A stretch of 64,000 bases of DNA, taken from Mobula hypostoma. Its lineage: Eukaryota. Below, in pieces: positions 7,536 to 62,129 of this stretch (positions are counted from its first letter, which is position 1; the number at the start of each line of letters is the position of its first letter). Where the stretch lies: positions 66,466,001-66,530,000 of the forward strand of contig NC_086097.1 in assembly GCF_963921235.1 (NCBI RefSeq). The letters are read 5' to 3'. Below the pieces are notes generated by a model that was given only the letters and a program-made list of their open reading frames with translations, was not told the origin of the DNA and ran no database searches. A program made the position numbers and the translations under genes.

Positions 7536-9000
7536 TAGAATATAGAACATAGAATAGTACAGCACAGTACAGGCCCTTCAGCCCACAATGTTATGCCAAA
7601 CCTCAAAGCCTGCCTCCCATATAAGCCCCCACCTTAAATTCCTCCATATACCTGTCTAGTAGTCTCTTAAACTTCACTAGTGTATCTGCCTCCGCCACTG
7701 ACTCAGGCAGTGCATTCCACGCACCAACCACTCTCTGAGTAAAGAACCTTCCTCTAATATCACCCTTGAACTTCCCACCCCTTACTTTAAAGCCATGTCC
7801 TCTTGTATTGAGCAGTGGTGCCCTGGAAAGGAGGCATTGGCTATCCAATCTATCTATTCCTCTTATTATCTTGTACACCTCTATCATGTCTCCTCTCATC
7901 CTCCTTCTCTCCAAAGAGTAAAGCCCTAGCTCTCTTAATCTCTGATCATAATGCATACTCTCTAAACCAGGCAGCATCCTGGTAAATCTCCTCTGTACCC
8001 TTTCCAATGCTTCCACATCCTTCCTATAGTGAGGCGACCAGAACTGGACACAGTACTCCAAGTGTGGCCTAACCAGAGTTTTATAGAGCTGCATCATTAC
8101 CTCGTGACTCTTAAACTCTATCCCTCGACTTATGAAAGCTAACACCCCATAAGCTTTCTTAACTACCCTATCCACCTGTGAGGCAACTTTCAGGGATCTG
8201 TGGACATGTACCCCCAAATCCCTCTGCTCCTCCACACTACCAAGTATCCTGCCATTTACTTTGTACTCTGCCTTGGAGTTTGTCCTTCCAAAGTGTACCA
8301 CCTCACACTTCTCCTGGTTGAACTCAATCTGCCACTTCTCAGCCCACTTCTGCATCCTATCAAAGTCTCTCTGCAATCTTTGACAATCCTCTACACTATC
8401 TACAACACCACCAACCTTTGTGTCGTCTGCAAACTTGCCAACCCACCCTTCTACCCCCACATCTAGGTCGTTAATAAAAATCATGAAAAGTAGAGGTCCC
8501 AGAACAGATCCTTGTGGGACACCACTAGTCACAATCCTCCAATCTGAATGTACTCCCTCCACCACGACCCTCTGCCTTCTGCAGGCAAGCCAATTCTGAA
8601 TCCACCTGGCCAAACCTCTCTGGATCCCATGCCTTCTGACTTTCTGAATAAGCCTACCGTGTGGAACCTTGTCAAATGCCTTACCAAAATCCATATAGAT
8701 CACATCCACTGCACTACCCTCATCTATATGCATGGTCACCTCCTCAAAGAACTCTATCAGGCTTGTTAGACATGATCTGCCCTTCACAAATCCATGCTGA
8801 CTGTCCCTGATCAGACCATGATTCTCTAAATGCCCACAGATCCTATCTCTAAGAATCTTTTCCAGCAGCTTTCCCACCGCAGATGTAAGGCTCACTGGTC
8901 TATAATTACCCGGACTATCCCTGCTACCTTTTTTGAACAAGGGGACAACATTTGCCTCCCTCCAATCCTCCGGTACCATTCCCGTGGACAACGAGGACAT
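7536..9000 (-). mobile_element. 5'-truncated CR1 LINE with an uninterrupted 465-aa RT frame, inserted in the L1 RT region
   Basis: ORF 7603..9000 (SGVPQGSVLGP, FADDTK); TTCTAT-type tail; splits L1 GCPLSP from LLFDIALEPLA. Confidence 0.93.
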
Positions 9001-15668: not shown

Positions 15669-15704
15669 AGTCGACGTTTCAGGCCGAGACCCTTCGTCAG
15701 GACT
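15669..15704 (-). ncRNA. Minimal type I hammerhead ribozyme motif (Penelope pLTR)
   Basis: Reverse complement reads AGTC-CTGACGA-AGGgtctcggCCT-GAAAC-GTC-GACT. Confidence 0.75.
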
Positions 15705-17197
15705 AACTGAAGGAAGAGTGAGTAAGGGATTTGAAAGCTGGAGGGGGAGGGGGAGATGCAAAATGATAGGAGAAGACAGGAGGGGGAGGGATAGAGCCGA
15801 GAGCTGGACAGGTGATAGGCAAAAGGGGATACGAGAGGATCATGGGACAGGAGGTCCGGGAAGAAAGACGGGGGGGGGGTGACCCAGAGGATGGGCAAGA
15901 GGTATATTCAGAGGGACAGAGGGAGAAAAAGGAGAGTGAGAGAAAGAATGTGTGCATAAAAAAGAGTAACAGATGGGGTACGAGGGGGAGGTGGGGCCTA
16001 GCGGAAGTTAGAGAAGTCAATGTTCATGCCATCAGGTTGGAGGCTACCCATACGGAATATAAGGTGTTGTTCCTCCAACCTGAGTGTGGCTTCATCTTTA
16101 CAGTAGAGGAGGCCGTGGATAGACATGTCAGAATGGGAATGGGATGTGGAATTAAAATGTGTTAATGTTTTTTTTAAAGAAAGGGGCTTCCCTTCCTCCA
16201 CTATCAACTCTGCTCTTAAACGCATCTCCCCCATTTCACGTACATCTGCTCTCACTCCATCCTCCCACCACCCCACTAGGAATAGGGTTCCCCTGGTCCT
16301 CACCTACCACCCCACCAGCCTCCGGGTCCAACATATTATTCTCCGTAACTTCCGCCACCTCCAACGGGATCCCACCACTAAGCACATCTTTCCCTCCCCC
16401 CCTCTCTCTGCATTCCGCAGGGATCGCTCCCTACACAACTCCCTTGTCCATTTGTCCCCCCCATCCCTCCCCACTGATCTCCCTCCTGGCACTTATCCGT
16501 GTAAGCGGAACAAGTGCTACACATGCCCTTACACTTCCTCCCTTACCACCATTCAGGGCCCCAAACAGTCCTTCCAGGTGAGGCATCACTTCACCTGTGA
16601 GTCGACTGGGGTGATATACTGCGTCCGGTGCTCCCGATGTGGCCTTTTATATATTGGTGAGACCCGACGCAGACTGGGAGACCGCTTTGCTGAACATCTA
16701 CGCTCTGTCCGCCACAGAAAGCAGGATCTCCCAGTGGCCACACATTTTAATTCCACATCCCATTCCCATTCTGACATGTCTATCCATGGCCTCCTCTACT
16801 GTAAAGATAAAGCCACACTCAGGTTGGAGGAACAACACCTTATATTCTGTATGGGTAGCCTCCAACCTGATGGCATGAACATTGACTTCTCTAACTTCCG
16901 CTAGGCCCCATCTCCCCCTCGTACCCCATCTGTTACTCTTTTTTATGCACACATTCTTTCTCTCACTCTCCTTTTTCTCCCTCTGTCCCTCTGAATATAC
17001 CTCTTGCCCATCCTCTGGGTCACCCCCCCCCCGTCTTTCTTCCCGGACCTCCTGTCCCATGATCCTCTCGTATCCCCTTTTGCCTATCACCTGTCCAGCT
17101 CTCGGCTCTATCCCTCCCCCTCCTGTCTTCTCCTATCATTTTGCATCTCCCCCTCCCCCTCCAGCTTTCAAATCCCTTACTCACTCTTCCTTCAGTT

Positions 17198-17233
17198 AGT
17201 CCTGACGAAGGGTCTCGGCCTGAAACGTCGACT
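17198..17233 (+). ncRNA. Minimal type I hammerhead ribozyme motif (Penelope pLTR)
   Basis: AGTC-CTGACGA-AGGgtctcggCCT-GAAAC-GTC-GACT: CUGANGA and GAAA cores, helix I AGTC/GACT, helix II AGG/CCT, GUC cleavage triplet. Confidence 0.78.
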
Positions 17234-20506: not shown

Positions 20507-21658
20507 ACACACATCAAAGTTGCTGGTGAACGCAGCAGGCCAGGCAGCATCTCTAGGAGGAGGTACAGTCGATGTTTCAGGCCGAGTCCCTTCGTCAGAA
20601 CTAACTGAAGGACGAGCTAGTAAGAGATTTGAAAGTGGGAGGGGGAGGGGGAGATCCAAAATGATAGGAGAAGACAGGAGGGGGAGGGGATGGAGCCAAG
20701 AGCTGGACAGGTGACTGGCAAAAGGGATACGAGAGGATCATGGGACAGGAGGCTCGGGGAGAAGGAAAAGCGGGGTGGGAGGAAACCCAGAGGATAGGCA
20801 AGAGGTATAGTGAGAGGGACAGAGGGAGAAAAAGGAGAGTGAGAGAAAGAATGTGTGTATATAAATAACGGATAGGGTACAAGGGGGAGGTGGGGCATTA
20901 GCGGAAGTTAGAGAAGTCGATGTTCATGCCATCAGGTTGGAGGCTACCCAGACGGAATATAAGGTGTTGTTCCTCCAACCTGAGTATGGCTTCATCTTTA
21001 CAGTAGAGGAGGCCGTGGATAGACATGTCAGAATGGGAATGGGATGTGGAATTAAAATGTGTGGCCACTGGGAGATCCTGCTTTCTCTGGCGGACAGAGC
21101 GTAGGTGTTCAGCAAAAGGATCTCCCAGTCTACGGTGGGTCTCGCCAATATATAGAAGGCCACATCGGAAGCACAAATCGCTTTATTTTCACCATCCTGG
21201 CAGACCTATTGTCTCAGCTTGCTCCTGCCCCACCGAACTCCTTTCTGCATACCTCGACATGGTTTTATCCCCCCTTGTTCAATCCCTTCCTACCTATGTG
21301 ACACTTCTCACGCTCTTAAACTTTTCGATGATTTTAAGTTCCCTGGCCCCCACCGCTTTATTTTCACCACTGGGCCTCCTGTCCCATGATCCTCTCACAT
21401 CCCTCTTGCCAATCACCTGTCCAGCTCTTGGCTCCATCCCTCCCCCTCCTGTCTTCTCCTATCATTTTGGATCTCCCCCTCCCCCTCCCACTTTCAAATC
21501 TCTTACTGCTCTTCCTTCAGTTAGTCCTGACGAAGGGTCTTGGCCTGAAACGTCGACTGTACCTCCTCCTAGAGATGCTGCCTGGCCTGCTGCGTTCACC
21601 AGCAACTTTGATGTGTGTTTCTTGAATTTCCAGCATCTGCAGAATTCCTTGTGCTTGC
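20507..21658. mobile_element. Penelope-like element 2: inverted structure inserted in L1 ORF2
   Basis: GIY-YIG piece on - (20898..21176); RT piece PGRPIVSACSCPTE on +; 16-bp TSD gtccttaaatctagca at 20491-20506 and 21659-21674. Confidence 0.9.
21523..21558 (+). ncRNA. Minimal hammerhead motif with intact core; a mutated mirror copy lies at 20567-20602 (-)
   Basis: AGTC-CTGACGA-AGGgtcttggCCT-GAAAC-GTC-GACT. Confidence 0.72.
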
Positions 21659-24600
21659 GTCCTTAAATCTAGCATCCTGTTTGTTCAGTATAAAATCCAA
21701 GTCATATGCACACCATTTAAGAATTGCAGTGTCTCTCTCTAGTTTATATTCTTTTATAATAGTTTTCCATATTTTAAGAGTCCATTTCACCCATGGGTTA
21801 TCAATATTATTTATGTAACTTTGTAGGTTGTTATCAGCCAAAATTGCCTGTATGGGGCTGGAAAGTATCCTCTCCTCAATGTTTTTCCATTGAGTGTCAT
21901 ATGATGGATTGCACCAGCATATCACAGCTCTCAACTGTGCTGCAATATAGTAATCTCTAAGAGAAGGCAGGCCCCATCCCCCCTTTTCCTTGGCTAATTG
22001 CAAAGTTTTGAGACGAACTCTAGGCCTTTTACCTTGCCATATATATCTTGATAGCATCTTGTTCCATTCATTGAATTGATTTTGGTTAATCTCTATTGGT
22101 AGGGTCTGAAAGAGATATAATAGTCTGGGCAGTATGTTCATTTTAATAGATTCAATCCTTGAACTGAGACCAAGAAAAGAAATTAGGTTCCATCTTGTTA
22201 TATCTTCCTTAATTTTTTTATATATAGGCTGATAATTGTATTCTGATAATTTTGCCAAATCTTTTGGCATAATGATGCCCAAATATTTGACAGACTCTGT
22301 TTGCCATGCCCAAGGATCTATTTTCAATTTCTCTTGGTGGGCTATAGTTATGTGAAAGTAGTTGGGTTTTACCTATGTTAATCTCGTATCCTGATAATTG
22401 GCCATATTGTTCAAAAGATTGCATCAATTTAGGTAAAGAGTATGTTGGTTGCCCTAGATAGATCAAAATGTCACCCACATAACAGGTCAATTTATGTTCT
22501 GTCCCTTTAATAGTAATTCCCCTGATATCTTCATTTTGTCTGATGTGTTGAGCTAATGGTTCCAGATATAATGCGAAGAGTAGTGGTGACCATGCACAAC
22601 CCTGTCTCGTGCCCCTTTCTAGGGTAAAACTATTAGATAAATATCTATTGATTTTAATCCTAACAGTAGGATTGTCATATAGTACCTGTATAGTTTTAAT
22701 AATTGTGTCATGTAGACCAAATCTATCTAAAACTCTGTAAAGAAAATTCCAATTAACCGATCAAATGCCTTTTCAGCATCCACGCTTATCACTATTGCTT
22801 CAATTTCATTTTTTTTATATGATCCATAATGTGAAGTGTCCTTCGTATATTGTCTTGTGTTTGGTGGTGTTGTATAAAACCTGTCTAATCATTATGTATC
22901 AGTGTGGGTAGAAGCTCTTCTAATCGTTTGTCTATGATGGATGTAAATAATCCATAATCCACCGTAAGTACAGATATTGGTCTTAATGACCCACATTCCA
23001 TTTTATCCTTGCCTTCTTTCGGTACAGCTGAGATTATCGCCTCCTTCCAGCTGGGTGGCATTTGTGCCTTTCTTAGAGCCCAGTTCAGTGTGGGGAGCAA
23101 AACAGGAATGAACTCATTTCTAAATTCCTTATACCACTCTGCCATATATCCATCTGATCCTGGTGACTTGCTTAATTTAAGCCTACTAATTGCAGTTTTT
23201 AGTTCAGCTTCAGTTATGTCAGCAGTCATCGTTTTATTTTGTTCTTTGCTTAAAGTGGGTAACTCTAAAGAATTCAGGAAGGTGTCAGTCTGGGCTATGC
23301 TTCCCCTTGGAGCTTTGGAATATAGAGTTCTGTAAGACATTTCAAAAGCTTCTTGAATTTCACTTAGCTTGTTTTTTTATATCACTTTTGTTCTTAGATC
23401 TCTAATTCTATGAATTGTATTTTCTGCTTTTTTTTTTCAATTTCCATGCCAGTATTTTCATAGATTTAGATCCACTTTCATAGTGTCTCTGTTTCAGAAA
23501 CATTACATTTTTTTAAATTTCTTGTGTAGCCAAACTGTTAATTTCATTCCTAATTTTTAAAATTACCTACAGTGTATCCTGTACCAAACTCAATTTGTTT
23601 TTTTTTTGAGTTCCTTCAGCTAATTTTGTAATTCCTCTAATGTTTTATTCCTTATTTTTTTCTTATATCAAGATATCGCTATAATTTTCCCTCTTAAGAC
23701 AGCCTTCAGAATGGGAGGTGAAACCTCTCCATTATCATTGAATTCTAAGTAAAGACCAAATTCCTTTTTTAATTTGTTCCTTAAAATAGGAATCATTGAG
23801 TAGACTTGAATTTAGTTTCCAAATAGTATTCTTTGGTTGTAGGTCAAAATCAACAGATAAATATATAAATGCATGGTCACTTACATCTATTGTCCCAATT
23901 CCACAGGTGTTTATTTTGTCTTTATCCTTTCCAAATGTTATGAAATAGTCTATTCCTGTATATACGGAATGGGGGCCAGAATAATGAGTGTAATCCCTTC
24001 TATCGGGGAAAAGATCCCTCCATATATCAATTAGACCAACATCCTCAAAAACAGTGTTAACTTTCTTATGTAAGGACTTTGTTTCATACACTTTTCTATT
24101 GGAAGAGTCTAACTTTGGTTGTAATTGTAAATTTAAGTCTCCCCCACATATCAAGAGACCTTCTGTTTCCGTTATTAGTTATTTTCTGGAAGGAACTAAT
24201 ATCACTTCCTGGGGGTGCGTATATATTCAATAAAGTAACTGGATTTCCATCTATATTCCCCCTTACCAGAATATATCTGCCCTCCTTATCTCCCATTTCG
24301 AATACTTTTTCAAAATTTAGCTTGCTTAAGATGAGAATAGCAACTCTTCTTCATTTTTCTGATTTATATGAGGAGAAAAACAAATTAATGAAGCCCATTC
24401 TCTTTAATTTTCCATGCTCATTATCACTTAAGTGAGTTTCCTGTAAATATACTACATGGGCTTGTTCTTTTTTCATTTTTGATAGAATTTTACTTCATTT
24501 GATTGGACTTAACAGCCCATTGATATTAAAAGAAATGAATTTTACTTTGTCCTTAGCCATGTGTATTTGTCTGTTAGTATATCGTTGAAATTTGCAGAAT

Positions 24601-31983: not shown

Positions 31984-33140
31984 AGCAACACACACAAAAT
32001 GCTGGTGGAACGCAGCAGACCAGGCAGCATCTATAAGAAGAAGTACAGTCAACATTTCGGGTTGAGACCCTTCGTCAGGACTAACGGAAAAAAGAGATAG
32101 TAAGAGATTTGGGAGGGGGAGGGAGAGACCCGAAATGATAGGAGAAGACAGGAGGGGGAGGGATGAAGCCAAGAGCTGGGAAGTTGATTGGCAAAAGGGA
32201 TACAAGGCTGGAGAAGGGGGAGTATCATGGGACGGAAGGCCTTGAAAGAAAGAAAGGGGGAGGGGAGCACCAGAGGAAGATGGAGAACAGGCAAGGAGTT
32301 ATTGTGAGAGGGAAAGAGAGAAAAAAATTATTTAAAAAAATAAATTAGGGATGGGGTAAGAAGGGGAAGAGGGGCATTAACGGAAGTTAGAGAAATCAAT
32401 GTTCATGCCATCAGGTTGGAGGCTACCCAGACGGAATATGAGGTGTTGTTCCTCCAACCTGAGTGTGGCTTCATCTCGACCATAGAGGAGGCCATAGATT
32501 AACATATCGGAATGGGAATGGGACTTGGAATTAAAATGTATGGACACTGGGAGATCCTGCTTCCTCTGGCAGACACATTTACTGTCCTCTACTGTTGAGA
32601 TGAAGCCACACTCAGGTTGGAGGAACAACACCTTATATTCCGTCTGGGTAGCCTCCAACCTGATGGCAGGAACATTGATTTCTCTAACTTCCGTTAATGC
32701 CCCTCCTCCCCTTCTTACCCCATCCCTAATTTTTTATTTTTTTTTAATTTTTTTTTTCTCTCTTTCCCTCTCACAATAACTCTTTGCCTGTTCTCCATCT
32801 TCCTCTGGTGCTCCCCTCCCCCTTTCTTTCTTCCAAGGCCTTCCGTCCCATGGTACTCCCCCTTCTCCAGCCACGTATCGCTTTTGCCAATTAACTTCCC
32901 AGCTCTTGGCTTCATCCCTCCCCCTCCGGTCTTCTCCGATCATTTTTGGTCTCCCCCTACCCCTCCCACTTTCAAATCTCTTACTATCTCTTTTTTCCGT
33001 TAGTCCTGACGAAGGGTCTCGACCCGAAATGTCGACTGTACTTCTTCCGATAGATGCTGCCTGGCCTGCTGTGTTCACCAGCATTTTGTGTGTGTTGCTT
33101 GAATTTCCAGCATCTGCCTATTTTCTCATGTTTGTATCTG
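31984..33140. mobile_element. Penelope-like element 3: palindromic (about 500-bp arms), second pLTR subfamily; hammerhead motifs at 32047-32082 (-) and 33002-33037 (+)
   Basis: Inverted arms encode EATLRLEEQHLIFRLGSLQPDG; 11-bp TSD taaataatgta at 31973-31983 and 33141-33151. Confidence 0.88.
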
Positions 33141-33163
33141 TAAATAATGTACTTTTTTTTTAG

Positions 33164-37289: not shown

Positions 37290-40200
37290 CAGTGGTGCTC
37301 GAAAGTGTGTGAACTCTATAGAATTTTCTCTATTTCTGCATAGTTATGACCTAAAATGTGATCAGTTCTTCACACGTCCTAAAATTAGAAAAAGAGAACC
37401 CCATTAAATAAATGACACCAAAAGCATTATACTTGTTCATTTAAACGCAAACAACAGGAATTCTGCAGATGCTGGAAATTCAAGCAACACACATCAAAGT
37501 TGCTGGTGAATGCAGCAGGCCAGGCAGCATCTGTAGGAAGAGGTGCAGTCGACGTTTCAGGCCGAGACCCTTCGTCAGGACTAACTGAAGGAAGAGTGAG
37601 TAAGGGATTTGAAAGTTGGAGGGGGAGGGGGAGGGGGAGATCCAAAATGATAGGAGAAGACAGGAGGGGGAGGGATAGAGCCAAGAGCCGGACAGGTGAT
37701 AGGCAACAGGGGATACGAGAGGATCATGGGACAGGAGGTCCAGGAAGAAAGACAAGGTGGGGGGGGGACCCAGAGGATGGGCAAGAGGTATATTCAGAGG
37801 GACAGAGGGAGAAAAAGGAGAGTGAGAGAAAGAATGTGTGCATAAAAATAAGTAACAGATGGGGTACGAGGGGGAGGTGGGGCCTTAGCAGAAGTTAGAG
37901 AAGTCGATGTTCATGCCATCAGGTTGGAGGCTACCCAGACGGAATATAAGGTGTTGTTCCTTCAACCTGAGTGTGGCTTCATCTTTACAGTAGAGGAGGC
38001 CGTGGATAGACATGTCAGAATGGGAATGGGATGTGGAATTAAAATGTGTGGCCACTGGGAGATCCTGCTTTCTCTGGCGGACAGAGCATAGATATTCAGC
38101 AAAGCGGTCTCCCAGTCTGCGTCGGGTCTCGCCAATATATAAAAGGCCATATCGAGAGCACCGGACGCAGTATATCACCCCAGTCGACTCACAGGTGAAG
38201 TGTTGCCTCACCTGGAAGGACTGTTTGGGGCCCTGAATGGTGGTAAGGGAGGAAGTGTAAGGGCATGTGTAGCACTTGTTCCGCTTACACGGATAAGTGC
38301 CAGGAGGGAGATCAGTGGGGAGGGATGGGGGGGACGAATGGACAAGGGAGTTGCGTAGGGAGCGATCCCTGCGGAATGCAGAGAGAGGGGGGAGGGAAAG
38401 ATGTGCTTAGTGGTGGGATCCCGTTGGAGGTGGCGGAAGTTACGGAGAATATGTTGGACCAGGAGGCTGGTGGGGTGGTGGGTGAGGACCAGGGGAACCC
38501 TATTCCTAGTGGGGTGGCAGGAGGATGGAGAGAGAGCAGATGTACGTGAAATGGGGGAGATGCGTTTAAGAGCAGAGTTGATAGTGGAGGAAGGGAAGCC
38601 CCTTTCTTTAAAAAAGGAAGACATCTCCCTCGTCCTAGAATGAAAAGCCTCATCCTGAGAGGACGAGGGAGATGTCTTCCTTTTTTAAAGAAAGGGGCTT
38701 CCCTTCCTCCACTATCAGCATCTGCTCTCAGGATGAGGCTTTTCATTCTAGGACGAGGGAGATGTCTTCCTTTTTTAAAGAAAGGGGCTTCCCTTCCTCC
38801 ACTATCAACTCTGCTCTTAAACGCATCTCCCCCATTTGACGTACATCTGCTCTCACTCCATCCTCCCGCCACCCCACTAGGAATAGGGTTCCCCTGGTCC
38901 TCACCTACCACCCCACCAGCCTCTGGGTCCAACATATTATTCTCCGTAACTTCTGCCACCTCCAACGGGATCCCACCACTAAGCACATCTTTCCCTCCCC
39001 CCCTCTCTCTGCATTCCACAGGGATCGCTCCCTACGCAACTCCCTTGTCCATTCGTCCCCCCCATCCCTCCCCACTGATCTCCCTCCTGGCACTTATCCG
39101 TGTAAGCGGAACAAGTGCTACACATGCCCTTACACTTCCTCCCTTACCACCATTCAGGGCCCCAAATAGTCCTTCCAGGTGAGGCAACACTTCACCTGTG
39201 AGTCGACTGGGGTGATATACTGCGTCCGGTGCTCCCGATGTGGCCTTTTATATATTGGCGAGACCCGACACAGACTGGAAGACCGCTTTGCTGAACATCT
39301 ACGCTCTGTCCGCCAGAGAAAGCAGGATCTCCCAGTGGCCACACATTTTAATTCCACATCCCATTCCCATTCTGACATGTCTATCCACGGCCTCCTCTAC
39401 CGTAAAGATGAAGCCACACTCAGGTTGGAGGAACAACACCTTATATTCCGTCTGGGTAGCCTCCAACCTGATGGCATGAACATCGACTTCTCTAACTTCT
39501 GCTAAGGCCCCACCTCCCCCTCGTACCCCATCTGTTACTTATTTTTATGCACACATTCTTTCTCTCACTCTCCTTTTTCTCCCTCTGTCCCTCTGAATAT
39601 ACCTCTTGCCCATCCTCTGGGTTCCCCCCCCCTTGTCTTTCTTCCCGGACCTCCTGTCCCATGATCCTCTCGTATCCCCTTTTGCCTATCACCTGTCCAG
39701 CTCTTGGCTCTATCCCTCCCCCTCCCCCTCCCCCTCCAACTTTCAAATCCCTTACTCACTCTTCCTTCAGTTAGTCCTGACGAAGGGTCTCGGTCTGAAA
39801 CGTCAATTGCACCTCTTCCTACAGATGCTGCCTGGCCTGCTGTGTTCACCAGCAACTTTGATGTGTGATACTTGTTCATTTATTTATTGAGAAAAATAAT
39901 CCAATATTATATGTATTTGTTGGAAAAAGTATGTCTTGTTGGAAAAAAATGTGAGTCTTTGCTTTCAGTAACTAGTGTGACCCCCTTGTAATAGCAATAA
40001 TTTCAGCCAAACATTTCTGGGAAATGTTGATCAGTTTTGCACATTGGCTTGGAGGAACTTTAAGCCATTCCTCCTTACAGAACTGCTTCAACTCTGGGAT
40101 GTTGATGTGTCTCCTTGCATGAAATGTTTGCTTCAATTCCTTCTGCAACATTTCTATAGGATTAAGGTCAGGACTTTTACTTGGCCATTCCAAAACACAA

Positions 40201-41475: not shown

Positions 41476-44400
41476 CATAGAACCATAGAACCATAGAAAC
41501 TACAGCACAGAAACAGGCCCTTTGGCCCTTCTCGGCTGTGCCGAACCATTTTCTGCCTAGTCCCACTGACCTGCACACGGACCATATCCCTCCATACACC
41601 TCCCATCCATGTATCTGTCCAATTTATTCTTAAATGTTAAAAAAGAACCCGCATTTACCACCTCATCTGGCAGCTCATTCCATACTCTCACTACTCTCTG
41701 TGTGAAGAAGCCCCCCCTAATGTTCCCTTTAAACTTTTCCCCCCTCACCCTTAACCCATGTCCTCTGGTTTTTTTCTCCCCTTGCCTCAGTGGAAAAAGC
41801 CTGCTTGCATTCACTCTATCTATACCCATCATAATTTTATACACCTCTATCAAATCTCCCCTCATTCTTCTACGCTCCAGGGAATAAAGTCCTAACCTAT
41901 TCAACCTTTCTCTGTAACTGAGTTTCTCAAGTCCCGGCAACATCCTTGTAAACCTTCTCTGCACTCTTTCAACCTTATTTATATCCTTCCTGTAATTTGG
42001 TGACTAAAACTGAACACAATACTCCAGATTCGGCCTCACCAATGCCTTATACAACCTAATCATAACATTCCAGCTCTTATACTCAATACTTTGATTAATA
42101 AAGGCCAATGTACCAAAAGCTCTCTTTACGACCCTATATACCTGTGACAACACTTTTAGGGAATTTTGTATCTGTATTCCCAGATCCCTCTGATCCACTG
42201 CACTCCTCAGTGCCTTACCATTAACCCTGTATGTTCTATGTTGGTTTGTCCTTCCAACGTGCAATACCTCACACTTGTCAGTACTAAACTCCATCTGCCA
42301 TTTTTCAGCCCATTTTTCCAGCTGGTCCAAGTCCCTCTGCAGGCTCTGAAAACCTTCCTCACTGTCTACTACACCTCCAATCTTTGTATCATCAGCAAAC
42401 TTGCTGATCCAATTTACCACATTATCATCCAGATCATTGATATAGATGACAAATAACAATGGACCCAGCACTGATCCCTGTGGCACACCACTAGTCACAG
42501 GCCTCCACTCAGAGAAGCAAATCTCTACCACCACTCTCTGGCTTCTTCCATCGAGCCAATGTCTAATCCAATTTGCCACCTCTCCATGTATACGTAGTGA
42601 CTGAATTTTCCTAACTAACCTCCCATGCGGGACCTTGTCAAAGGCCTTACTGAAGTCCATGTAGACAATATCCACTGCCTTCCCTTCACCCACTTTCCTG
42701 GTAACCTCCTCAAAAAACTCCAACAGATTGGTCAAACATGACCTACCACGCACAAAGCCATGTTGACTCCCCCTAATAAGCCCCTGTCTATCCAAATGCT
42801 TGTAGATTCTGTCTCTTAGTACTCCCTCCAGTAACTTACCTACTACTGACGTTAAACTCACCGGCCTATAATTTCCCGGATTACTTTTCGATCTTTTTTT
42901 AAACAACGGAACAACATGAGCCACTCTCCAGTCCTCCGGCACTTCACCCGTAGACAGTGACATTTTAAATATTTCTGCCAGGGCCCCCACAATTTCAACA
43001 CTAGTCTCCTTCAAGGTCCGAAGGAACACTCTGTCAGGTCCCGGGGATTTATCCACTTTAATTTTCCTCAAGACAGCAAGCACCTCCTCCTTTTCAATCT
43101 GTACAGTTTCCATGGTCTCACTACTTGATTCCCTCAATTCCATAGATTTCATGCCAGCTTCCTTAGTAAATACAGATGCAAAAAACCTATTTAAGATCTC
43201 CCCCATTTCCTTTGGTTCCGCACAAAGCCGACCACTCTGATCTTCAAGAGGACCAATTTATCCCTTACAATCCTTTTGCTCTTAATATACTTGTAAAAGC
43301 TCTTTGGATTATCCTTCACTTTGACCGCCAAGGCAACCTCATGTCTTCTTTTAGCCCTCCTGATTTCGTTCTTAAGTATTTTCTTGCACTTCTTATACTC
43401 CTCAAGCACCTGATTTACCCCTTGTTTCCTATACATTTCATACAACTCCCTCTTCTTCTTTATCAGAGTTACAATATCCCTTGAGAACCAAGGTTCCTTA
43501 TTCCTATTCAATTTGCCTTTAATCCTGACAGGAACATACAAACTCTGCACTCTCAAAATTTCCCCTTTGAAGGCTTGCCACCTACCAATCACATCTTTGC
43601 CAGAGAACAACCTGTCCCAATCCACGCTTTTTAGATCCTTTCTCATTTCTTCAAATTTGGCCTTCTTCCAGTTCAGAACCTCAACCCTAGGACCAGATCT
43701 ATCCTTGTCCATGATCAAATTGAAACTAATGGTGTTATGATCACTGGAACCAAAGTGCTCCCCTACACAGACTTCTGTCACTTGCCCTAATTCGTTACCT
43801 AACAGGAGATCCAATATTGCATCCCCTCTAGTTGGTCCCTCTATATATTGATTTAGAAAACTTTCCTGAACACATTTTACAAACTCTAAACCATCTAGAC
43901 CCCTAACAGTATGGGAGTCCCAATCAATGTATGGAAAATTAAAATCCCCTACCACCACAACTTTATGTTTCCTGCAGTTGCCTGCTATCTCTCTGCAGAT
44001 TTGCTCTTCCAAGTCTCGTTGACTATTGGGTGGTCTGTAATACAATCCCACTAATGTGGCCATACCTTTCCTGTTTCTCAGCTCCACCCATAAGGACTCA
44101 GTAGACAAGCCCTCTAATCTGTCCTGCCTGAGCACTGCTGTAGTATTTTCCCTAACAAGCAATGCTACTCCCCCACCTTTCATTCCTCTGCCTCGATCAC
44201 ATCTGAAACATCGGAACCCTGGAATATTAAGCTGCCAGTCCTGCCCCTCCTGTAGCCAAGTTTCACTAATTGCTACAACATCATAATTCCACGTGTCAAT
44301 CCACGCCCTCAACTCATCCGCCTTCCCCACAATACTCCTAGCATTGAAATATATACACCTCAGAAGATTTTTACCACCACTCACAACCTTTCCATCAGCG

Positions 44401-45170
44401 GATTTGCTTAAACTTTCAACATCATTTATTTTCACCCCAGCCACACTGTCAGCTCTGGCACTCTGGTTCCCATCCCCCTGCAAATCTAGTTTAAAGCCTC
44501 TCCAATAGCACTAACAAACCTCCCTGAAAGGATATTGGTCCCCCTGTGGTTCAAGTGTAACCCGTCTCTCTTGTACAGGTCCCACCTGCCCCAGAAGAGG
44601 TCCCAATGATGCTGAAATCTGAAACCCTGCCCCCTACACCAGTTCCTCAGCCACTTGTTCCTCCTCCAGAGCATCCTATTCCTACCCTCACTGGCACCTA
44701 GCACAGATAGCAATCCTGAGATTACCACCCTTGAGGTCCTGCTTTTCAACTTCCTACCAAGCTCTCTATACTCACTGTCCAGGACCTCTTCACTCTTCCT
44801 TGCTATGTCATTGGTACCGATGTGCACCACGACATCTGGCTGGTCACCCTCCCACTTCAGAATGTCATGCAATCGATCAGAGACATCCTTGACCCTGGCA
44901 CCTGGGAGGCAACAAACCATCCTGGATTCTCTGTCACAACCACAGAACCTTCTATCTGCACCTTTAACTATCGAGTCCCCTATCACTACCGCTCTCCTCT
45001 TTCTCCCCCCCTCCCTTCTGCACTGCAGAGCCAGACTCAGTGCCAGAGATCTGGCTACTGCAGCTAGTCCCAGGTAAGTCATCCCTCCCAACAGTATCCA
45101 ATGCGGTATACTTGTTGTTGAGGGGAATGGCCACAGGGGAACCCTGCTCTGCCTGCCCTTTCCTCTTGGT
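41476..45170 (-). mobile_element. Near full-length CR1 LINE: SGNH/GDSL-esterase ORF1 portion plus APE-RT ORF2 with one frameshift and one stop
   Basis: 44486..45187 (VIGDSIV, HIGTND, DGLHL); 43191..44483 APE; 42004..43206 and 41557..41964 RT; (CATAGAAC)n tail. Confidence 0.93.
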
Positions 45171-45683
45171 AGGATTTTGTGCAGCAAGAACCTGAAAAAG
45201 AAAGAGATGAATGTTGTTCTACTCTATCCTTAGAATCCTTCTGACTCTAGTTTTTTTTTATCCATAACTTTTAAACCAGTTTTCATTTTTTGTATCGCAG
45301 TTTCATATTTTAATGTATTTTAAAGGGGAAAATCTTTGGCTCCCATTCAAGGCATTTTGTAACCAACAAATCACAGAATTATTGTGGATTGGTCCTCGAG
45401 AAATCCAGAATCAGTGACAGATTTTCAAAGAACTTTCCAGACATAAAACCACCTTAATCAAATCAATGTGTGTGAAAATAGGCAGTCCTACTAGGACATA
45501 GCATAACAAACTGAAGGTAGAAAAGTTTAACAGAATTGCTTTTCTGCAGATGTAAGGAATAAAGTTCTACAGCATATTACTTCTATTTAAACAGCCAATT
45601 TCTAGCAATTATCATACTTTTAAATAGTGATAAAATAAGCCACATTGCAAAAGAGTGAGCAATTTATATGTAATGTGTTTGAG

Positions 45684-45894
45684 ACTCCATTATTTAGAAG
45701 ACGCTGTAAACTATTTCAACCAAGCTGTGAATTTGGATCCATTTTTTGTGGATGCATATTATGGACGTGGAAATGTATATATGGATTCTGGTCATCCAGC
45801 TGGAATAAAGCAAGCACAGAAAGATTTTGTTCGAGCACTTCATTTAAATCCTAAATGTGTGAAAGCCAGACTCAATCTGGGATACAATTTACAG
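45684..45894 (+). CDS. TTC6: TTC6-like internal exon (2-0): LHYLEDAVNYFNQAVNLDPFFVDAYYGRGNVYMDSGHPAGIKQAQKDFVRALHLNPKCVKARLNLGYNLQ
   Basis: Lies within ORF 45655..45954; donor CAG|gtatgg; the only nearby phase-compatible acceptor is gtgtttgag|; KQAQKDF..ALH.NP and GYNLQ are TTC6-like. Confidence 0.9.
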
Positions 45895-46909
45895 GTATGG
45901 ATTACTTTTGGAGACTTATTGCAAAAGAAAATTACTATTTATGTAGAATTTTAACTTTTGCTAAAATATGAACAAAATTATCATTTTTCTTTTGTTTTAA
46001 ATTATTGCTTAGAAATGATCTTGCATTGTGTGATATTAGGTGTAAAATAAGCTTTGTTTTCCAGAGCAGAATATGATAATGTTATTCTTTCTCATTCATA
46101 CCACCGTGGTAATTCTCGCAGGCACTTCCCTTTGTAAATCTCACCAGCATAAATTACTATTTTCTTATAGGATATGCAGATGACATCATTTTCTCATGCT
46201 TGTTTGGAACACTACAGTAAGAAACTGGGTCAAGTTCTTTGAAAATGCATTTGCTGTTAGTCAGTCGCAGGAGAACTGGGTTGACAAAATGCTCTTTACT
46301 AAAGCAGCTGCATGATTTAAGGGGCCACTCAAATATTTTTTTTAAATCAGACCTGTGTTATCTATTGTAGAAGAGTCAGCGCTGAAAATTGTTCCTACTG
46401 ACCACAATAGCTTAGGGTAGGGACACCACGATTTCATTCTAGAAACTTCCATACAAACAGAATATTTTGTTTGGGTGTGCGGCAGAAGCTAGATCTGCAG
46501 GTGGCAGAGGCAGTGCAGATGTAAGTGAGAATACTAAAGACTTATGCCAAGGAGGAACTATTGCTGCTGACGTTGTTCCAGGAACAACACTATGTCTTTG
46601 AGAAGTTGGGATCAATGGTAACTATTTTGTCAATTCTGATGCACAAAACTCCAGTCATCTGTTCATGCCTGGATCTCTTACATGGCCATCAAGTTCACAC
46701 TTATTCTCTGTCCTAGCATCAAAATAATTCTATCAGTGATGGTTTATATGTAGCATTTCTCAGTTTGCTGCTCACTACAGCATCAGGATGGTTATAAATG
46801 GTTTCCATTCAAGGAAGAGGGAACATCAAGCCAAATAGGCTCATAAACAATAGGAATTATTCAATAAGATCCTAACAAATCAGATCTTAGCTTCAGCCCA
46901 TTTTCTACA

Positions 46910-51002: not shown

Positions 51003-54000
51003 CTAGACAACCGGGTGACCCGTTGGGGCACCCTTTGAGAGAAGGGTAGTGCAGTCTGATGTGACCAGAATGAACATTAAATTTTCCTGAATGCTATTGC
51101 TATCGCTTTGCTTTGAAAATTAAAGAAGATAAACTCAGTTTATTAAAGAAGAAAGATGCGTAGCAAGACAAATATAGCTGCTCCTCGTTTAACGAAGGAC
51201 ACTTTTGATGACAGCATTTCTGGTTCATCTACCACCAAGAATACTCTAACGTTTTCATTTCTTTTTCCCTGGCTTAAAGCCACATACAGCTGACCATGCT
51301 GGAATACCGGTTTCTCCAGATAAATCAACATATTTTCCATGGTGTGGCCTTGCGCCTTACATATAGTCATAGCAAAACATGACTGTATCGGGAACTGGCT
51401 CCGCTGAAGAGGGACATCTTCCCCTTCTGATAAACAGAGTAATTCTTGGGATTATGACAATGTCATTTTTGAATGCACCAATGCTTATCTTGGCTACAAT
51501 AAGATTGTCGTGCAGTTCTTCCACCATCATTCGTGTTCCATTGCAAAGCCTTGGTGGATCCAAATTTCTCATTGAAATGATGTGAGATCCCCTCACAATT
51601 CCAGTTTATGTGGTGGTAATCCAGAGAGTTTGACCGAATCAAGGAATTCTGTTAGAAAATGAGTGGTGGTAGCTCCTTCACTTACGGCGTTGAAGGAACA
51701 TTATTCTTTCATGAATCCAGGGAAGCGTCTAATGCATGTGAAGTTTATTTTTGCATCATTTCATTGAGAGGAACCAAGGTAGAATTCCTCGAGAACAGTT
51801 TTTCGAATGTAGGGTAGATGAAATCAATACATTCTTCCATAGTTTTTGCTGGCAGAATCATATCTTCAGATAATTGGATTTCATCATTTTCATTTTTCTC
51901 AATCTTGTCTTCTCCAACATCCAATAAGAACTCAGAATATCGTCCTTCTCCCTCACTCAATCGCATGTTTCCAATTGAAACTTGATGAAGCTTCTCCATA
52001 AGTAGGATTTTTTTATGCATGAATTCTCCACATCAGCATCATATCCTCGTTTCACAACTGCTAGAAGCTGACGGAAATTGCCACAGCAAGTGGTTAAAAT
52101 ACCCCCGAAGGCCTCATTCTTGCCGCATACATCACAAAGAGTCTGGTCCACAGCTTTGAAGCTCTGCCTCCTAATCATGGAGCACTCATCCCAGACAATA
52201 AGCCTCGCATTTTGGAGTAAATTTGCAGTATTGGTGTATATATCGATGTTACAAAGGGCATCTTCATTGACTTTGAGGGGTATCTTGAATCTTGAATGCG
52301 CTGTCCTACCACCAGGCATCAATGTTGCAGCAATACCAGATGATGCTACAGCAATAGCAACACCTCCATCTCCCCTAACTTTAGCAAGGATCAAGTTGAT
52401 GATAAATGTCTTGCCCGCTCCTCCTGGTGCATCAATGAAAATCATTGAAGAGAGATTCCTTTCCAAGCAGTCGCACACATATTCATATACTTCTCTTTGC
52501 TCATTATTCAATAGGGGCTCCTTCTGTGAAACAAATCCCTGCTGTTCATCTGTGTTGTATTGCAGTTCACACAAAGATTCCAGATTGCCAGCACTTTGAG
52601 TAAGTGTACCGTTTCTTGGTGTCGGCAAGTTATATTCTTCAAGTGTTTTGCCCAAACTCACAAGTTTCTCTTGGAAATACAGATGAGCTTGTCCGTGATG
52701 CCTGTCATCAATCATGATATTAGGATTATTTATAGTTCTGCTCTCCATTTGTAAGAAATCTTCAGACATTGCATTCTTGAACCGGTTCCATAATTGCTGT
52801 GGATTGTTGATTTCAGTGTTTGTTAGCAAGACGACAAACAAATCTCTCATTGCTCTGGGCATTCTTGTTCTCTCTGCTTCTTCCATAGTTTGCTGCCAAT
52901 GATTGCCAGCTTGCAACAATCCTGTCTCTCTACAGATGTCTTTGAATGATGGAAGGATATCTCCATCATGTGTTTTCAATGATTCAAAAGATACTGGCCC
53001 CCTTTATGTGATGAAGTAGTCTCAAATACTAGAGGTCACCACTTCATGGAGAAACAGTATACACTTGACCCAGAACATTTGCTTCAAAAATCCCGGAGTA
53101 CTCTTCCACTCTCACGTTGAATTCCATCATTCTGTACTATCCCCATTCTCAATTCTATGCTGTCTTGAGGATCCATGAAGTAAATTTGAAGGAATTGGGC
53201 TCGCTATTTGGGGTCTGGCATTAAATGTCCAATGTAATGATGGATTTAGCCTTGAATAATCACAGAAGGATTCCATCCATTCCTCATTGGAAGGACTTCT
53301 TTGGCACCAAAGGATGTCATTTGGAAGAGGCAATTGTATTGTCTCATGTTCTTCCTGAACTCGTTTGCAATAGGTTCATCATTGCTGTATAAACTGAGTT
53401 CATTGGGTAGAGGTTGCAAATTGCCTATCCTGACCTTCCCCTCATACAGCAGAAATTTGCGGTTTCTCCAGTGAACAAGGCGGCACAACAGTGAGGGCAT
53501 ACTCTGGTCATCGTACCAACATCAGCAGAAATGATACGGTGTGCAAGTCATGCATTTTGCCTTGCTTTTTCTCTGTCGAGGTATTGTCGTTGAAAGCGGG
53601 CATTGTCGTCTCCAGCAACTCTGTAATAATTACTCTTTGCCGCATATTTGAGTTGATCTTTCCTTTTCTCCTCTGTCTCTTCCTCTCCTTCTTCTGTGCC
53701 TGTTTTTGTCATTCTGGAGATGCCTTTCATCCCCCCCCCCCCGTCTCTTCATCTCTTCTGCCATTTATTCTTTGTCTCTGATCCTGGAGATGTGCATTTC
53801 TCAGCTCCTTTGTCTCTTCCTCTCTCCTCCTTCTATGCCAGTTGTTGTCATTCTGGAAGCATGCAGCCCTTTCATCTTTCGTCTCTTCATCTCTTCTACC
53901 ATTTGTTCTTTCTCTCTGATCCTGGAGTCATGCGGCCCTGGGCTGATCCAATTCTTGTTCTCTCCTCCTTCTGTGCCTATTGTTGTCATTTTGGAGACGT

Positions 54001-55188: not shown

Positions 55189-55341
55189 GTACTAGGTAAA
55201 TTTCAGAAAGCCTGGAATCACTTTGCAATTGCAATTGATATAGACCCAAAATTTCAGGATGCATATGAAGGTCGAGCAGTAATCAGCCTTCAAATGAACA
55301 ATACATCTGGAGCATTACAGGACATCAATGCTGCGTTGAAG
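55189..55341 (+). CDS. TTC6: TTC6-like internal exon (0-0): VLGKFQKAWNHFAIAIDIDPKFQDAYEGRAVISLQMNNTSGALQDINAALK
   Basis: Acceptor ttttctcctttttag| and donor AAG|gtatac; 153 nt; GKFQKAWNHF.IAID.DP and AYEGRAV are TTC6 hallmarks as I recall them. Confidence 0.92.
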
Positions 55342-56314
55342 GTATACATAATTATGCCTATATCTTAAGGCATCAAGCAACAGAATAAGATACTTCAAAA
55401 TGCATATTAATGCATGGACTCTAGTGTTAGTTAACAGAATTGTTCTAAAATCCAGAATTATTTGGTGGGGCCATTAACACCATTTTCACATGGTGCTAAT
55501 AGAGCTTTTGAAAACTCCAGTCTACTGGGATTTTGAAGGTCTTTAATAATCAAATGCATGAGGTATTGATAACATTTTTAGAGTACCACATATAATACCT
55601 CTAGAATTTTGACAAAGTAAATTATTAAAGTCAGGAGAAATCATTCAGTGAAGTATCACTCAGGAAAATGTCTGCTAAAGGAAGTAAACCAGCTAATTTA
55701 AAACATTTGGTCACTAAGGGCTGAAAAGACATGCAAACAAGAACTCTGTAGTCCAGAGAAAAACATTTTGGAAACAGAAAGGCAGCAGTTTTGCCCTCTT
55801 TGAAGGAGGAAAAAGGACCTACACAAATATTGACAAAATAAGGCATTCAACAGTGTCCAAAGGTGGCAGGTTCAGACAATGGTGAAATGTGGGTATATTA
55901 TCCTAAGGCAAAAATTCCAGTGCTGTAATTGGAAGTTGAGAAAATGGTGAAAATTGGTGATGCAATGATAAGAATTTTCCCTTCTCTCAAGCAGCCATTG
56001 GTGTTGTGTTGAAGATTCATTGACTTTAAACTGATAACAGAGAAAGAAAAGAAAGTGACTAAACTGATAACACAAGGTTTTGCTTCTGGGTAGAAGTTAA
56101 ACATACCCTCAATTTTTTTCCTCCATGTAAAGTTGTAATAATTTCATTTGTTAGGAAATTCTCTGGTTACAGAAAGGCAATATTATTAGACTAATACACT
56201 GAAAAAATTCAAAACCTGCCATTGAAGTTTTTGAATTTAAATTAAGTTTATAAAAAGAATGTAGAAATATAAATCAACTACCAGTAATAGTGACTCTGAA
56301 GATGGCAATAATAT

Positions 56315-56584
56315 CGTCCTTCTCCCTCACTCAATCGCATGTTTCTCTTCAGTTGAAACTTGGTGAAGCTTCTCCATGAGTAGGATTTTTTAATGCATGA
56401 ATTCTCCACATCAGCATCATTTCCACGTTTCACAACTGCTAGAAGCTGACGGAAATCGCCACAGCAAATGGTTAAAATACCCCCGAAGGCCTCATTCTTG
56501 CCGCATACATCACGAAGAGTCTGGTCCACAGCTTCGAAGCTGTCCCTCCTAATCATGGGGCAGTCATCCCACACAATAAGCCTC
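56315..56584 (-). mobile_element. Isolated internal Helitron helicase fragment flanked by a 17-bp direct repeat
   Basis: Highly similar to 51941-52206; flanks gaagat(g/a)gcaataatat at 56298-56314 and 56585-56601. Confidence 0.88.
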
Positions 56585-57039
56585 GAAGATAGCAATAATA
56601 TGTCCGATATTTCCATGAAGTTCTTTGAGGACAGAAAGCAGCTCCTCTTATCTAGTCAGCCCACACGAATATCATCCAACATGCTTGTAGCAGATTCCTT
56701 TAATACCTTTCTCAACTGGCTCATCAAGACACACGATCATTTCAAAAGAATGCCTAATACTATCTTCAGAAAAATAAATGATATTTAGCAGTGATGTTAA
56801 TATAATGGGGAAAATAAATTAAGCTTAGCAATTAAAGAAAAATGCGATAACAAACTATTACAACAGTCCCATTGTGATTTATTCAAAGGTCTTGCTTTTG
56901 ATAGTTGGTGCATCTGAAAAAAAGCAACAGATTATAATAAACATCATTTTATAAATATTGCATAAGACTAAGAAATAGTAGATCATTTAGTTCCTTTTGC
57001 CTTTAGTTTAGTTAATGTGGACTAAACAATTTCACATGA

Positions 57040-60909: not shown

Positions 60910-60996
60910 TTACTCGGCTTCTATAACTAGTTCATATTTGCTGGCTTCTTCAATGTTGTTTAATTGGCGAATTGTCCATTCCTTTATCCGAGTTTG
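60910..60996 (-). CDS. Nested antisense gene, terminal coding exon: QTRIKEWTIRQLNNIEEASKYELVIEAE* (Sororin/CCDC201-like C-terminal motif)
   Basis: Strong acceptor tatttttttgctgtttttctacag| in phase 0 with the upstream donor; 28 codons plus TAA; W-x7-IEEA-x2-YELVIE pattern. Confidence 0.78.
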   Translation of the reverse strand, partial: QTRIKEWTIRQLNNIEEASKYELVIEAE

Positions 60997-61324
60997 CTGT
61001 AGAAAAACAGCAAAAAAATACGGATGATTGTAGATCAGTTCCATTCTTTTTATTTAAAGTAGTCTTTGCAATAGAATTGATCACCGGCTTGTACTAGTTT
61101 ATTTCAGTATTGGTTTGAATAACTCTTACATGCATCATTTTGGCCATTCAAAATATTTTCACTAACTTTGTTAAATTCTTTCACTGCTTAAGTTTGAAGC
61201 CAGAGCCAAATTGTCAGAATCACGCAAAACTGAAGTAAAAATGAACACAGTTCTCAAAACCAAATCTAGATGCATGCTATTTTTAGAAATCTCCAGATTT
61301 TGGATTTACCATCACAAAACATAC

Positions 61325-61957
61325 CTGCTCTATAGGCAATCTTTTTGCCCTTTTGTTTTTCCTTTTGATCATGGATTTCTCAAGAAAACTTGAATTAAAA
61401 TTAATGGAAGATTTGTGAGAATATGACTTGGATCTGCTTTTACGGGCAGCTTCAGTCTTTCCACTGAAATGCTTGAGAGATCTGGATGGTGTTGAATCAT
61501 TTTCTATAGTGGCTTTATTAGTAGTAGTCTCTTCCATACTGGATTGACAATTCTTTTCATTGTCTGATGTGGGGGTTGGAACACTTTCTTCAAATATTAT
61601 TGACAGCATTGTTCCTCTAAAAGTTGTAGACTTACTTGACATACTTGCACTCCATTGGCTAGCTCCTGGTTTACAATCAGTGTCAATTATTGTGCTGGGC
61701 TGAGATTTCTCAAGATTTAGAGGCAACTTTTCCTCAAAGTATTCAGAATTTAACTGTACAAAATTAGGTACAGGAGAAGTTGTTGATATTGCAGAGTTGG
61801 GTAAAATTGAATCATAAAATATGTCCTGCAATTCATGGTCATGTTCTATCCTGGAAAGATCAATACTTTCTTCCAACTTCTCAGTCTTTTCAAAGTATGG
61901 TTCTTCAGGAGTGCTATATTTCTCAGAGAATGTGCATCCAGCTCTCAATCTTGCCAT
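61325..61957 (-). CDS. Nested antisense gene, first coding exon (211 codons, S/T/E-rich and probably disordered, basic end) of a Sororin-domain / CCDC201-like protein
   Basis: Non-transposon 224-aa ORF 61283..61957; ATG in strong context aaatATGG; internal donor GAGCAG|gtatgt at 61325/61324 (phase 0); upstream acceptor tgtttgttttattctctccttaaccaataaag| opens the exon at 61988. Confidence 0.75.
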
Positions 61958-62129
61958 ATTTAAAGGTCAATTTTTTTCTCAGTCATACCTTTATTGGTTA
62001 AGGAGAGAATAAAACAAACATAGCGTAAAACGAACTTAAATTATGCTTTTCTTCCAAATAACTTTTTCATGGGATGATTTGGCATGTTAGTAACTAATGG
62101 AAAGAATTGTGAAATCCATCATAATACTC

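Follow-up and report, generated by a model that had tools for sequence, protein, structure and literature searches.

Age-related aneuploidy raises the question of how oocytes retain non-renewable REC8 cohesin over years. In published work CCDC201/OMC1 is described as an oocyte cohesion-maintenance protein, such that a cohesin role is already in print: from pachytene until metaphase I OMC1 occupies the axes of REC8 cohesin, with which it colocalises, and upon its loss chromosomal REC8 decreases and aneuploidy increases with age (PMC13754574). The tail-less variant R151X, which corresponds to human R162X, showed no chromosome localisation and did not rescue (PMC13754574). The authors of that study left the mechanism undetermined, and a WAPL-like release pathway is named by them as no more than possible (PMC13754574). 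For Sororin, the last 30 residues, i.e. the C-terminal region (CTR), are required for cohesion and suffice for it; they bind directly to the closed interface of RAD21 and SMC3 and keep the DNA exit gate of cohesin shut (PMC12976308). The word “Sororin” has no occurrence in the OMC1 paper (PMC13754574). Here we describe a gene within a stretch of 64,000 nucleotides from the ray Mobula hypostoma (assembly GCF_963921235.1, NC_086097.1:66,466,001-66,530,000, forward strand; “the window”, to which all coordinates refer unless a contig is named). Judged from its sequence the gene very probably belongs to the CCDC201/OMC1 family, and its product ends in a tail that resembles the Sororin CTR. We consider it likely that the gene is both a CCDC201/OMC1 orthologue and an ancient duplicate of Sororin, the tail of which would lock the SMC3-REC8 gate.

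The gene lies on the minus strand and comprises two coding exons with the following features:

61325..61957, minus strand: coding exon 1, 633 nt, 211 codons from the ATG to the donor CAG/gtatgt; body predicted to be disordered, including KYSTPEE near the N-terminus
61340..61366, minus strand: basic patch KRKNKRAKR (residues 198-206) immediately before the splice site; aligned by hhalign with the Lys/Arg patch of shark and ray Sororins
60997..61324, minus strand: intron of 328 nt, gt..ag, phase 0, ending in ttttctacag, six codons before the conserved Trp
60913..60996, minus strand: coding exon 2, 28 codons, QTRIKEWTIRQLNNIEEASKYELVIEAE; Sororin-CTR-like tail
60990-60988 (Arg), 60978-60976 (Trp), 60954-60952 (Ile), 60936-60934 (Tyr), 60921-60919 (Glu), minus strand: key codons of exon 2
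60910..60912, minus strand: stop codon TAA
60824..60829, minus strand: AATAAA polyadenylation signal, 80 nt past the stop

The frame of exon 1 is open from stop to stop over 61283..61966 with the ATG at 61957, and an in-frame TGA is found three codons 5' of this ATG. Splicing joins 211 and 28 codons to a product of 239 amino acids (aa). At its 3' end the intron carries a pyrimidine-rich tract followed by cag. An initial annotation, made from the letters of the window, had proposed the donor, the 328-nt intron, the in-phase acceptor, the 28-codon last exon and the AATAAA, and all of its coordinates were found to be correct; the 239-aa product, the tail given for it and the KYSTPEE motif were likewise present. 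What had been described from the sequence is confirmed, and the overall interpretation is supported with the caveats given below: the gene exists, and its splicing follows the prediction. As to the description of its open reading frame (ORF) as the sole long one of the window unrelated to transposons, nine of the 15 other long ORFs scanned carry transposon-type Pfam domains and six carry none.

Related proteins were found throughout the cartilaginous fishes. A word-index search with exon 1 returned annotated proteins of 239 aa in Hemitrygon akajei (84% identity) and Pristis pectinata (68%), and a search with the tail added a protein of Narcine bancroftii. With the 50-residue tail of one family member this search gave three candidates only, all of them batoid. 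Three batoid proteins of 239-251 aa cross the predicted junction uninterrupted (...LP.EQ/Q.RI.EW..., the slash marking the junction). A full HMMER scan of 1.84 billion representative sequences with a profile from the three batoids yielded five proteins at E<=0.001, all of the same family: two of the query batoids, an unnamed fragment of 171 aa, LOC122553687 of Chiloscyllium plagiosum and XP_007891555 of Callorhinchus milii. A member from Rhincodon typus, named “CCDC201-like” by NCBI, was added by a later search, the query of which was a mixed alignment of three family tails and the ray Sororin tail, such that its E-values served retrieval only and are no evidence. With members such as those of Callorhinchus and Rhincodon the family thus spans batoids, sharks and a chimaera. 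Altogether seven annotated cartilaginous-fish proteins cross the junction, one of them under the NCBI name “CCDC201-like”. The term “unannotated” of the initial annotation is therefore wrong for the relatives. The ray gene itself is an ordinary orthologue and a new member of a known family, since its counterparts in relatives are already annotated as “uncharacterized” or “CCDC201-like”. In the ray genome a genome search found such a locus in single copy.

Splicing was seen in a 159-nt contig of a close relative ray. The contig covers 61325..61464 and then continues with 19 extra letters, the reverse complement of which shares 17 of 19 letters with the beginning of exon 2 and reads QTRIQE, as in Hemitrygon. 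It is a spliced junction from which the intron is skipped, and the junction 61325->60996 expected from the initial annotation is thereby observed in a related ray, in a sequencing run that is presumed to be RNA; three other runs yielded no contig on this stretch. Apart from this, the 171-aa fragment of another batoid runs from exon 1 into the intron, as does the ORF of the window (61283-61324). The first intron codons of both are alike (VCFVMVN versus VKPCFVMIN), and the start of the intron is thus conserved between species.

Conservation is concentrated at the end of the protein. The orthologues align across the entire length of exon 1, and the seven full-length members share 42 invariant columns, of which 17 fall within the last 32 residues. 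Among six cartilaginous-fish tails half of the exon 2 columns (14/28) are invariant. The body of the protein evolves fast, as judged from the exon 1 codons that differ between the window and the related ray. AlphaFold2 (AF2) applied to the seven-sequence alignment gave a mean pLDDT of 49, with most of the exon 1 part below 50. Confidence was high for one helix only, which in the Hemitrygon protein covers residues 209-231 (block means 94 and 87) and is followed by an extended acidic end. It spans the positions from W-9 to W+13, comparable to the K227-E245 helix of Sororin. The protein would be short and mostly disordered, and its working part would be the last ~40 residues with a basic patch, a Pro-containing linker and an amphipathic helix that has an acidic end. 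A sequence search of the PDB with the batoid profile provided only two chance matches to a giant-virus protein (E 0.3 and 0.49).

The assignment to CCDC201/OMC1 is based on several features of the protein. Human CCDC201 has 187 aa; its Arg162 is encoded by the final exon, and conservation is highest over the 25 residues at its end (PMC11387189). The third codon of the last ray exon encodes an invariant Arg, which is followed by 25 residues in the window protein and in 6/7 members, and by 26 in Narcine. The ray gene thus shares with human CCDC201 the arrangement of a final exon in which an Arg precedes the most conserved part. In a language-model atlas the family's own cluster ranked first, followed by a chordate cluster of 112 members termed “putative CCDC201” (0.94, with 214/256 shared features) and by the CDCA5 (Sororin) cluster (0.91). 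The OMC1 paper states conservation across vertebrates, and in the legend of its Extended Data Fig. 2 the species named are mouse, human, bird and alligator only (PMC13754574).

We then compared the tail with Sororin itself. The ray genome encodes a true Sororin at 2.34 Mb of contig C82, with Sororin_middle at 2337696-2337866 and Sororin_C at 2339949-2340017 (50 bits); a separate CDCA5 thus exists elsewhere in this genome. Its penultimate exon ends with ...KEKKKKRRVVEIE/gtgagt; the last one is cag/KSVLDEWAAQMNASFEEAERFDLVVE up to the stop codon. In a MAFFT alignment the last exons of the ray Sororin and of the family begin together and match without gaps; W, E-E-A, L and E are invariant. In both genes a phase-0 intron lies exactly six codons before the Trp and a basic patch immediately precedes it, and in shark Sororins a Pro is found four codons before the Trp. 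The ray tail has the layout published for the “Sororin domain”, i.e. a basic stretch, a polar linker and a helical motif at the end (PMC11148194).

Profile comparison supported the likeness. For seven family members against ten cartilaginous-fish Sororins, hhalign provided one match, tail to tail, over 51 columns (probability 80.7%, P 1.3e-5). When only 45-column tails were used, a probability of 93.5%, a P of 2.2e-7 and a score of 33.5 were obtained. None of 583 column shuffles of the Sororin tail reached this score (mean 8.4, sd 1.9, maximum 17.4), and the reversed Sororin tail scored 13.0. A family-tail hidden Markov model (HMM) matched 10/10 Sororins with 15.7-20.5 bits, and in the reverse direction the Sororin-tail HMM matched 7/7 family members with 9.0-15.9 bits; per-comparison E-values ranged from 2e-8 to 7e-5. 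By hhalign, by the shuffles and by the reciprocal HMMs the match of the tail to Sororin is significant. Together with the shared intron position and the paralogous chromosome segments described below, this tail profile result supports the link between the CCDC201 and Sororin families that had been suggested as a possibility from the window alone.

At the level of single residues, W233, F241, A243, E245, F247 and E252 of human Sororin contact Y3 and K50 of RAD21 as well as L1031, K1034, K1038 and R1099 of SMC3, and the mutants W233A/E252K and F241A/F247A lose binding (PMC12976308). The printed numbering of W233, F241, F247 and E252 (PMC12976308) fits the spacing given in the initial annotation. 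In the gapless register the family has an invariant W at W233, an invariant I at F241, E at A243 as in ray Sororin, S, T or K at E245, H or Y at F247, and an invariant E at E252 with two more residues behind it. Of the six contact positions four are retained or carry a conservative replacement. At the other two the divergence may reflect a different kleisin partner.

Independent of sequence similarity and of the shared intron is the argument from the chromosomal setting. The window contains exons of a plus-strand gene with tetratricopeptide (TPR) repeats, which continues downstream on the same contig (C1):

59082..59285, plus strand: TPR-repeat exon of the host gene (Pfam TPR_1, 39.5 bits, and other TPR models)
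45634-45951 and 55189-55365, plus strand: further TPR exons of the same host gene
C1:66559078-66559437, plus strand: next downstream TPR exon, beyond the window

With plus-strand TPR exons on both sides, the minus-strand gene is nested antisense in an intron of the TPR gene, which bears out its initial placement within a host-gene intron. A gene with Forkhead and HNF_C domains (FOXA-type) is found at C1:66.05 Mb, 0.42 Mb from the window. In human, FOXA1 abuts TTC6, such that TTC6 is a plausible identity of the host gene. Unexpectedly, a second FOXA-type gene is located 3.7 Mb from Sororin on C82. The human segments 11q13 and 14q are paralogous. From this paralogy shared PYG, DPF and PCNX genes were predicted, and all three were found. 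On C82 Sororin (2.34 Mb) is accompanied by DPF (4.57 Mb), FOXA (6.06 Mb), PCNX (11.5 Mb) and PYG (15.5 Mb), while C1 carries PCNX (37.7 Mb), PYG (51.4 Mb), FOXA (66.05 Mb), the ray gene (66.53 Mb), a further PCNX (86.9 Mb) and DPF (100.2 Mb). The FOXA-type, glycogen phosphorylase (PYG), DPF1-3 and pecanex (PCNX) families are thus common to C82 (0-16 Mb) and C1 (37-100 Mb). A third set is partly present on C22, with FOXA at 83.5 Mb and PYG at 92.5 Mb. Since all four marker families are shared by both segments, Sororin and the ray gene lie in mutually duplicate blocks, which points to a common descent by whole-genome duplication.

These observations suggest a possible mechanism. By analogy with Sororin, the tail would dock in oocytes onto the SMC3 neck and the N-terminal domain of the REC8 kleisin. 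Once docked, it would hold the exit gate of cohesin shut and block release. The lost FGF and KEN elements would free the protein from Pds5 competition and from cell-cycle destruction, which would make it suited to act through a very long arrest. Whether the family tail is indeed the same module as the Sororin CTR, docking on SMC3-REC8 cohesin and keeping the gate shut, we consider an even call. The gene is presumably expressed in the oocytes of rays. Slightly below an even chance we place the more far-reaching idea that CCDC201/OMC1 is the oocyte twin of Sororin, i.e. a genome-duplication paralogue that kept only the gate-locking C-terminal helix and would keep the SMC3-REC8 gate shut for years. 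Arg162Ter and R151X would then remove the lock, and the ray gene would retain the ancestral arrangement within the Sororin-paralogous block.

A number of results weigh against the view of the gene as a CCDC201/OMC1 orthologue with a Sororin-derived tail. Pfam Sororin_C (PF25220, cut-off 27.4 bits) and Sororin_middle (PF09666) matched none of the seven members and neither exon of the window, even at E<=10, and a scan of the whole genome with PF25220 found the true Sororin only. The gene product is therefore not a Sororin-domain protein by the curated threshold. When hhalign was extended past the tail, it provided only zero-confidence columns and no similarity outside the tail. The FGF motif and the KEN box are absent from the window protein and from its orthologues. 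At the contact position E245 the family has S, T or K, and the Glu that matches E252, the residue with which Sororin ends, has two residues behind it. The batoid profile at E<=0.001 retrieved neither a tetrapod CCDC201 nor a Sororin from the 1.84 billion representatives, such that orthology to human and mouse CCDC201 rests on the NCBI name, the atlas score and the tail geometry. The CCDC201 cluster of the atlas is mixed, with Sororin_C in 15% and Sororin_middle in 13% of its members, and its CCDC201 and CDCA5 matches are thus not independent. A search of the atlas with the tail alone gave no usable feature match, and its structure matches were meaningless single helices. Human CCDC201 is located at 7p12.3 near IGFBP1 and IGFBP3. 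On C1 the nearest match to an IGFBP domain was found at 83.17 Mb, 16.6 Mb away; with no such match within 16 Mb the locus is unlike human 7p12.3. Finally, between the window and the contig of the relative nine exon 1 codons differ, eight of them nonsynonymously.

As for candidate motifs outside the tail, the batoid RSKSYS(HK) (61400-61430, residues ~175-185) and TFRG had been considered as Sororin YSR and FGF motifs and were dropped, being not conserved in sharks or chimaera. The stretches RSKSYSHK and TTFRGTMLSIIFEES (residues 100-125) bear a faint resemblance to RRSYSR and the PDS5-binding SFFGFERLL of Sororin; hhalign leaves both unaligned.

Alternative explanations divide this evidence differently. 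A CCDC201-like gene may have acquired a Sororin-like tail by convergence or chance, the combination of a basic patch and an acidic amphipathic helix then implying no common ancestry and a binding site that need not match. The restriction of the likeness to ~40-50 residues, the missing Sororin_C match and the divergence at two of the six contact positions would fit such an origin, and the column shuffles are a lenient control because they destroy helical periodicity. Against convergence stand an intron of identical position and phase in both genes, reciprocal HMM matches on every member (10/10 and 7/7), a gapless alignment anchored at the exon start as well as at the protein end, and the paralogous segments with four of four marker families in common (FOXA, PYG, DPF, PCNX). 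Overall we regard convergence as unlikely. Common descent with Sororin is also assumed if the gene is a Sororin paralogue of cartilaginous fishes that is not orthologous to tetrapod CCDC201/OMC1, the label “CCDC201-like” reflecting the Sororin-type tail alone. That no tetrapod CCDC201 was retrieved by the searches, and that the locus lies in a TPR gene beside FOXA and lacks the IGFBP pair of human 7p12.3, is in agreement with this possibility. Yet the CCDC201 cluster of the atlas scored above that of CDCA5 (0.94 versus 0.91), the genome contains a single such locus besides Sororin, and the Arg with its 25-residue tail in a small last exon fits human CCDC201 (PMC11387189). The stated vertebrate-wide conservation of OMC1, with mouse, human, bird and alligator in the legend (PMC13754574), is a further point in favour of orthology, such that a separate paralogue appears rather improbable.

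One may also ask whether the ORF is a working gene at all, or instead a decaying pseudogene, a transposon-derived ORF or an artefact of annotation. The window is rich in transposons, most codon changes in exon 1 between close relatives alter the amino acid, and the stretch is absent from the runs that are recorded as RNA. Against this, neither the reading frame nor either splice site is disrupted, batoids, sharks and chimaera share one architecture, 17 of the 42 invariant columns are placed in the last 32 residues, a relative provides a spliced contig, and the locus is single-copy in the genome. A non-functional ORF is thus highly improbable. We therefore retain the view of the ray gene as a CCDC201/OMC1 orthologue that descends from a Sororin duplicate.

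In the literature, searched as open-access and bioRxiv text, no paper contained both “sororin” and “CCDC201”, and among the matches listed no title or start of an abstract tied a vertebrate Sororin-like gene to CCDC201. “CCDC201” and “cohesin” occur together in the OMC1 paper (PMC13754574) and in a review. A Sororin connection at the level of the family seems to be unpublished, while automated resources already brush against it through the mixed CCDC201/Sororin cluster of the atlas. The likeness of the tails joins the cohesion result for OMC1 (PMC13754574) with the lock of the RAD21-SMC3 gate by Sororin (PMC12976308). The retention of REC8 cohesin by OMC1 thereby becomes a residue-level question at the W, I, H/Y and E positions. 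The same question matters for a human cause of primary ovarian insufficiency. The human early-menopause allele is CCDC201 Arg162Ter, which would cut off the tail lock if CCDC201 is the twin of Sororin.

The remainder of the window contains remnants of mobile elements. A PIF1-like helicase ORF at 51957-53003 (minus strand) matches Pfam PIF1 with 189 bits, and a second one at 56278-56655 (minus strand) is similar by eye; both are probably fragments of a Helitron-type element within the same intron region. Between 15402 and 17425 mirror-image ORFs with identical translations are found on opposite strands, e.g. at 15703-16023 (minus strand) and 16879-17199 (plus strand), flanking an ORF with a GIY-YIG domain at 16107-16904. 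This region is an inverted duplicate of a Penelope-like element, of which further copies lie at 20898-21666, 32377-33163 and 37416-39890. LINE-type elements at 2544-9000 and 41557-45223 carry reverse transcriptase, endonuclease, an L1 ORF1-like domain and a GDSL-esterase ORF1.

Among known systems, other protectors of cohesin such as Dalmatian of Drosophila, Sor1 of fission yeast, AtSORORIN and SWI1/DYAD are lineage- or meiosis-specific WAPL antagonists that act beside Sororin or replace it, and protectors of the Sororin type share just a short C-terminal motif (PMC11148194, PMC6465247). They differ from the ray gene in that they belong to other lineages and none is a vertebrate oocyte protein, with SWI1 having no sequence likeness to Sororin (PMC11148194, PMC6465247). 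Closer is CCDC201/OMC1, i.e. human CCDC201 and mouse Omc1/Gm11985 (Oddsson et al. 2024, PMC11387189; Iisaka et al. 2026, PMC13754574). Both it and the ray protein are small (239 aa in the ray versus 187 aa in human), and in both conservation is strongest in the tail, which is encoded by a small last exon, an Arg followed by 25 residues matching human Arg162. The location is different, the ray gene lying inside a TPR gene beside a FOXA gene and not at a site like 7p12.3. Compared to Sororin/CDCA5, the ray tail is below the Pfam thresholds, Sororin_middle, the FGF motif and the KEN box are missing, the position matching E245 is not acidic, and the family has two extra residues after the last conserved Glu. 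In common with the Sororin CTR (PF25220), in contrast, it has a basic patch, a Pro linker and a helix with a W, a hydrophobic residue at +8, an aromatic residue or His at +14 and a Glu at +19, all at the extreme C-terminus of a protein that is otherwise predicted to be disordered in both cases, and the two genes reside in paralogous chromosome blocks.

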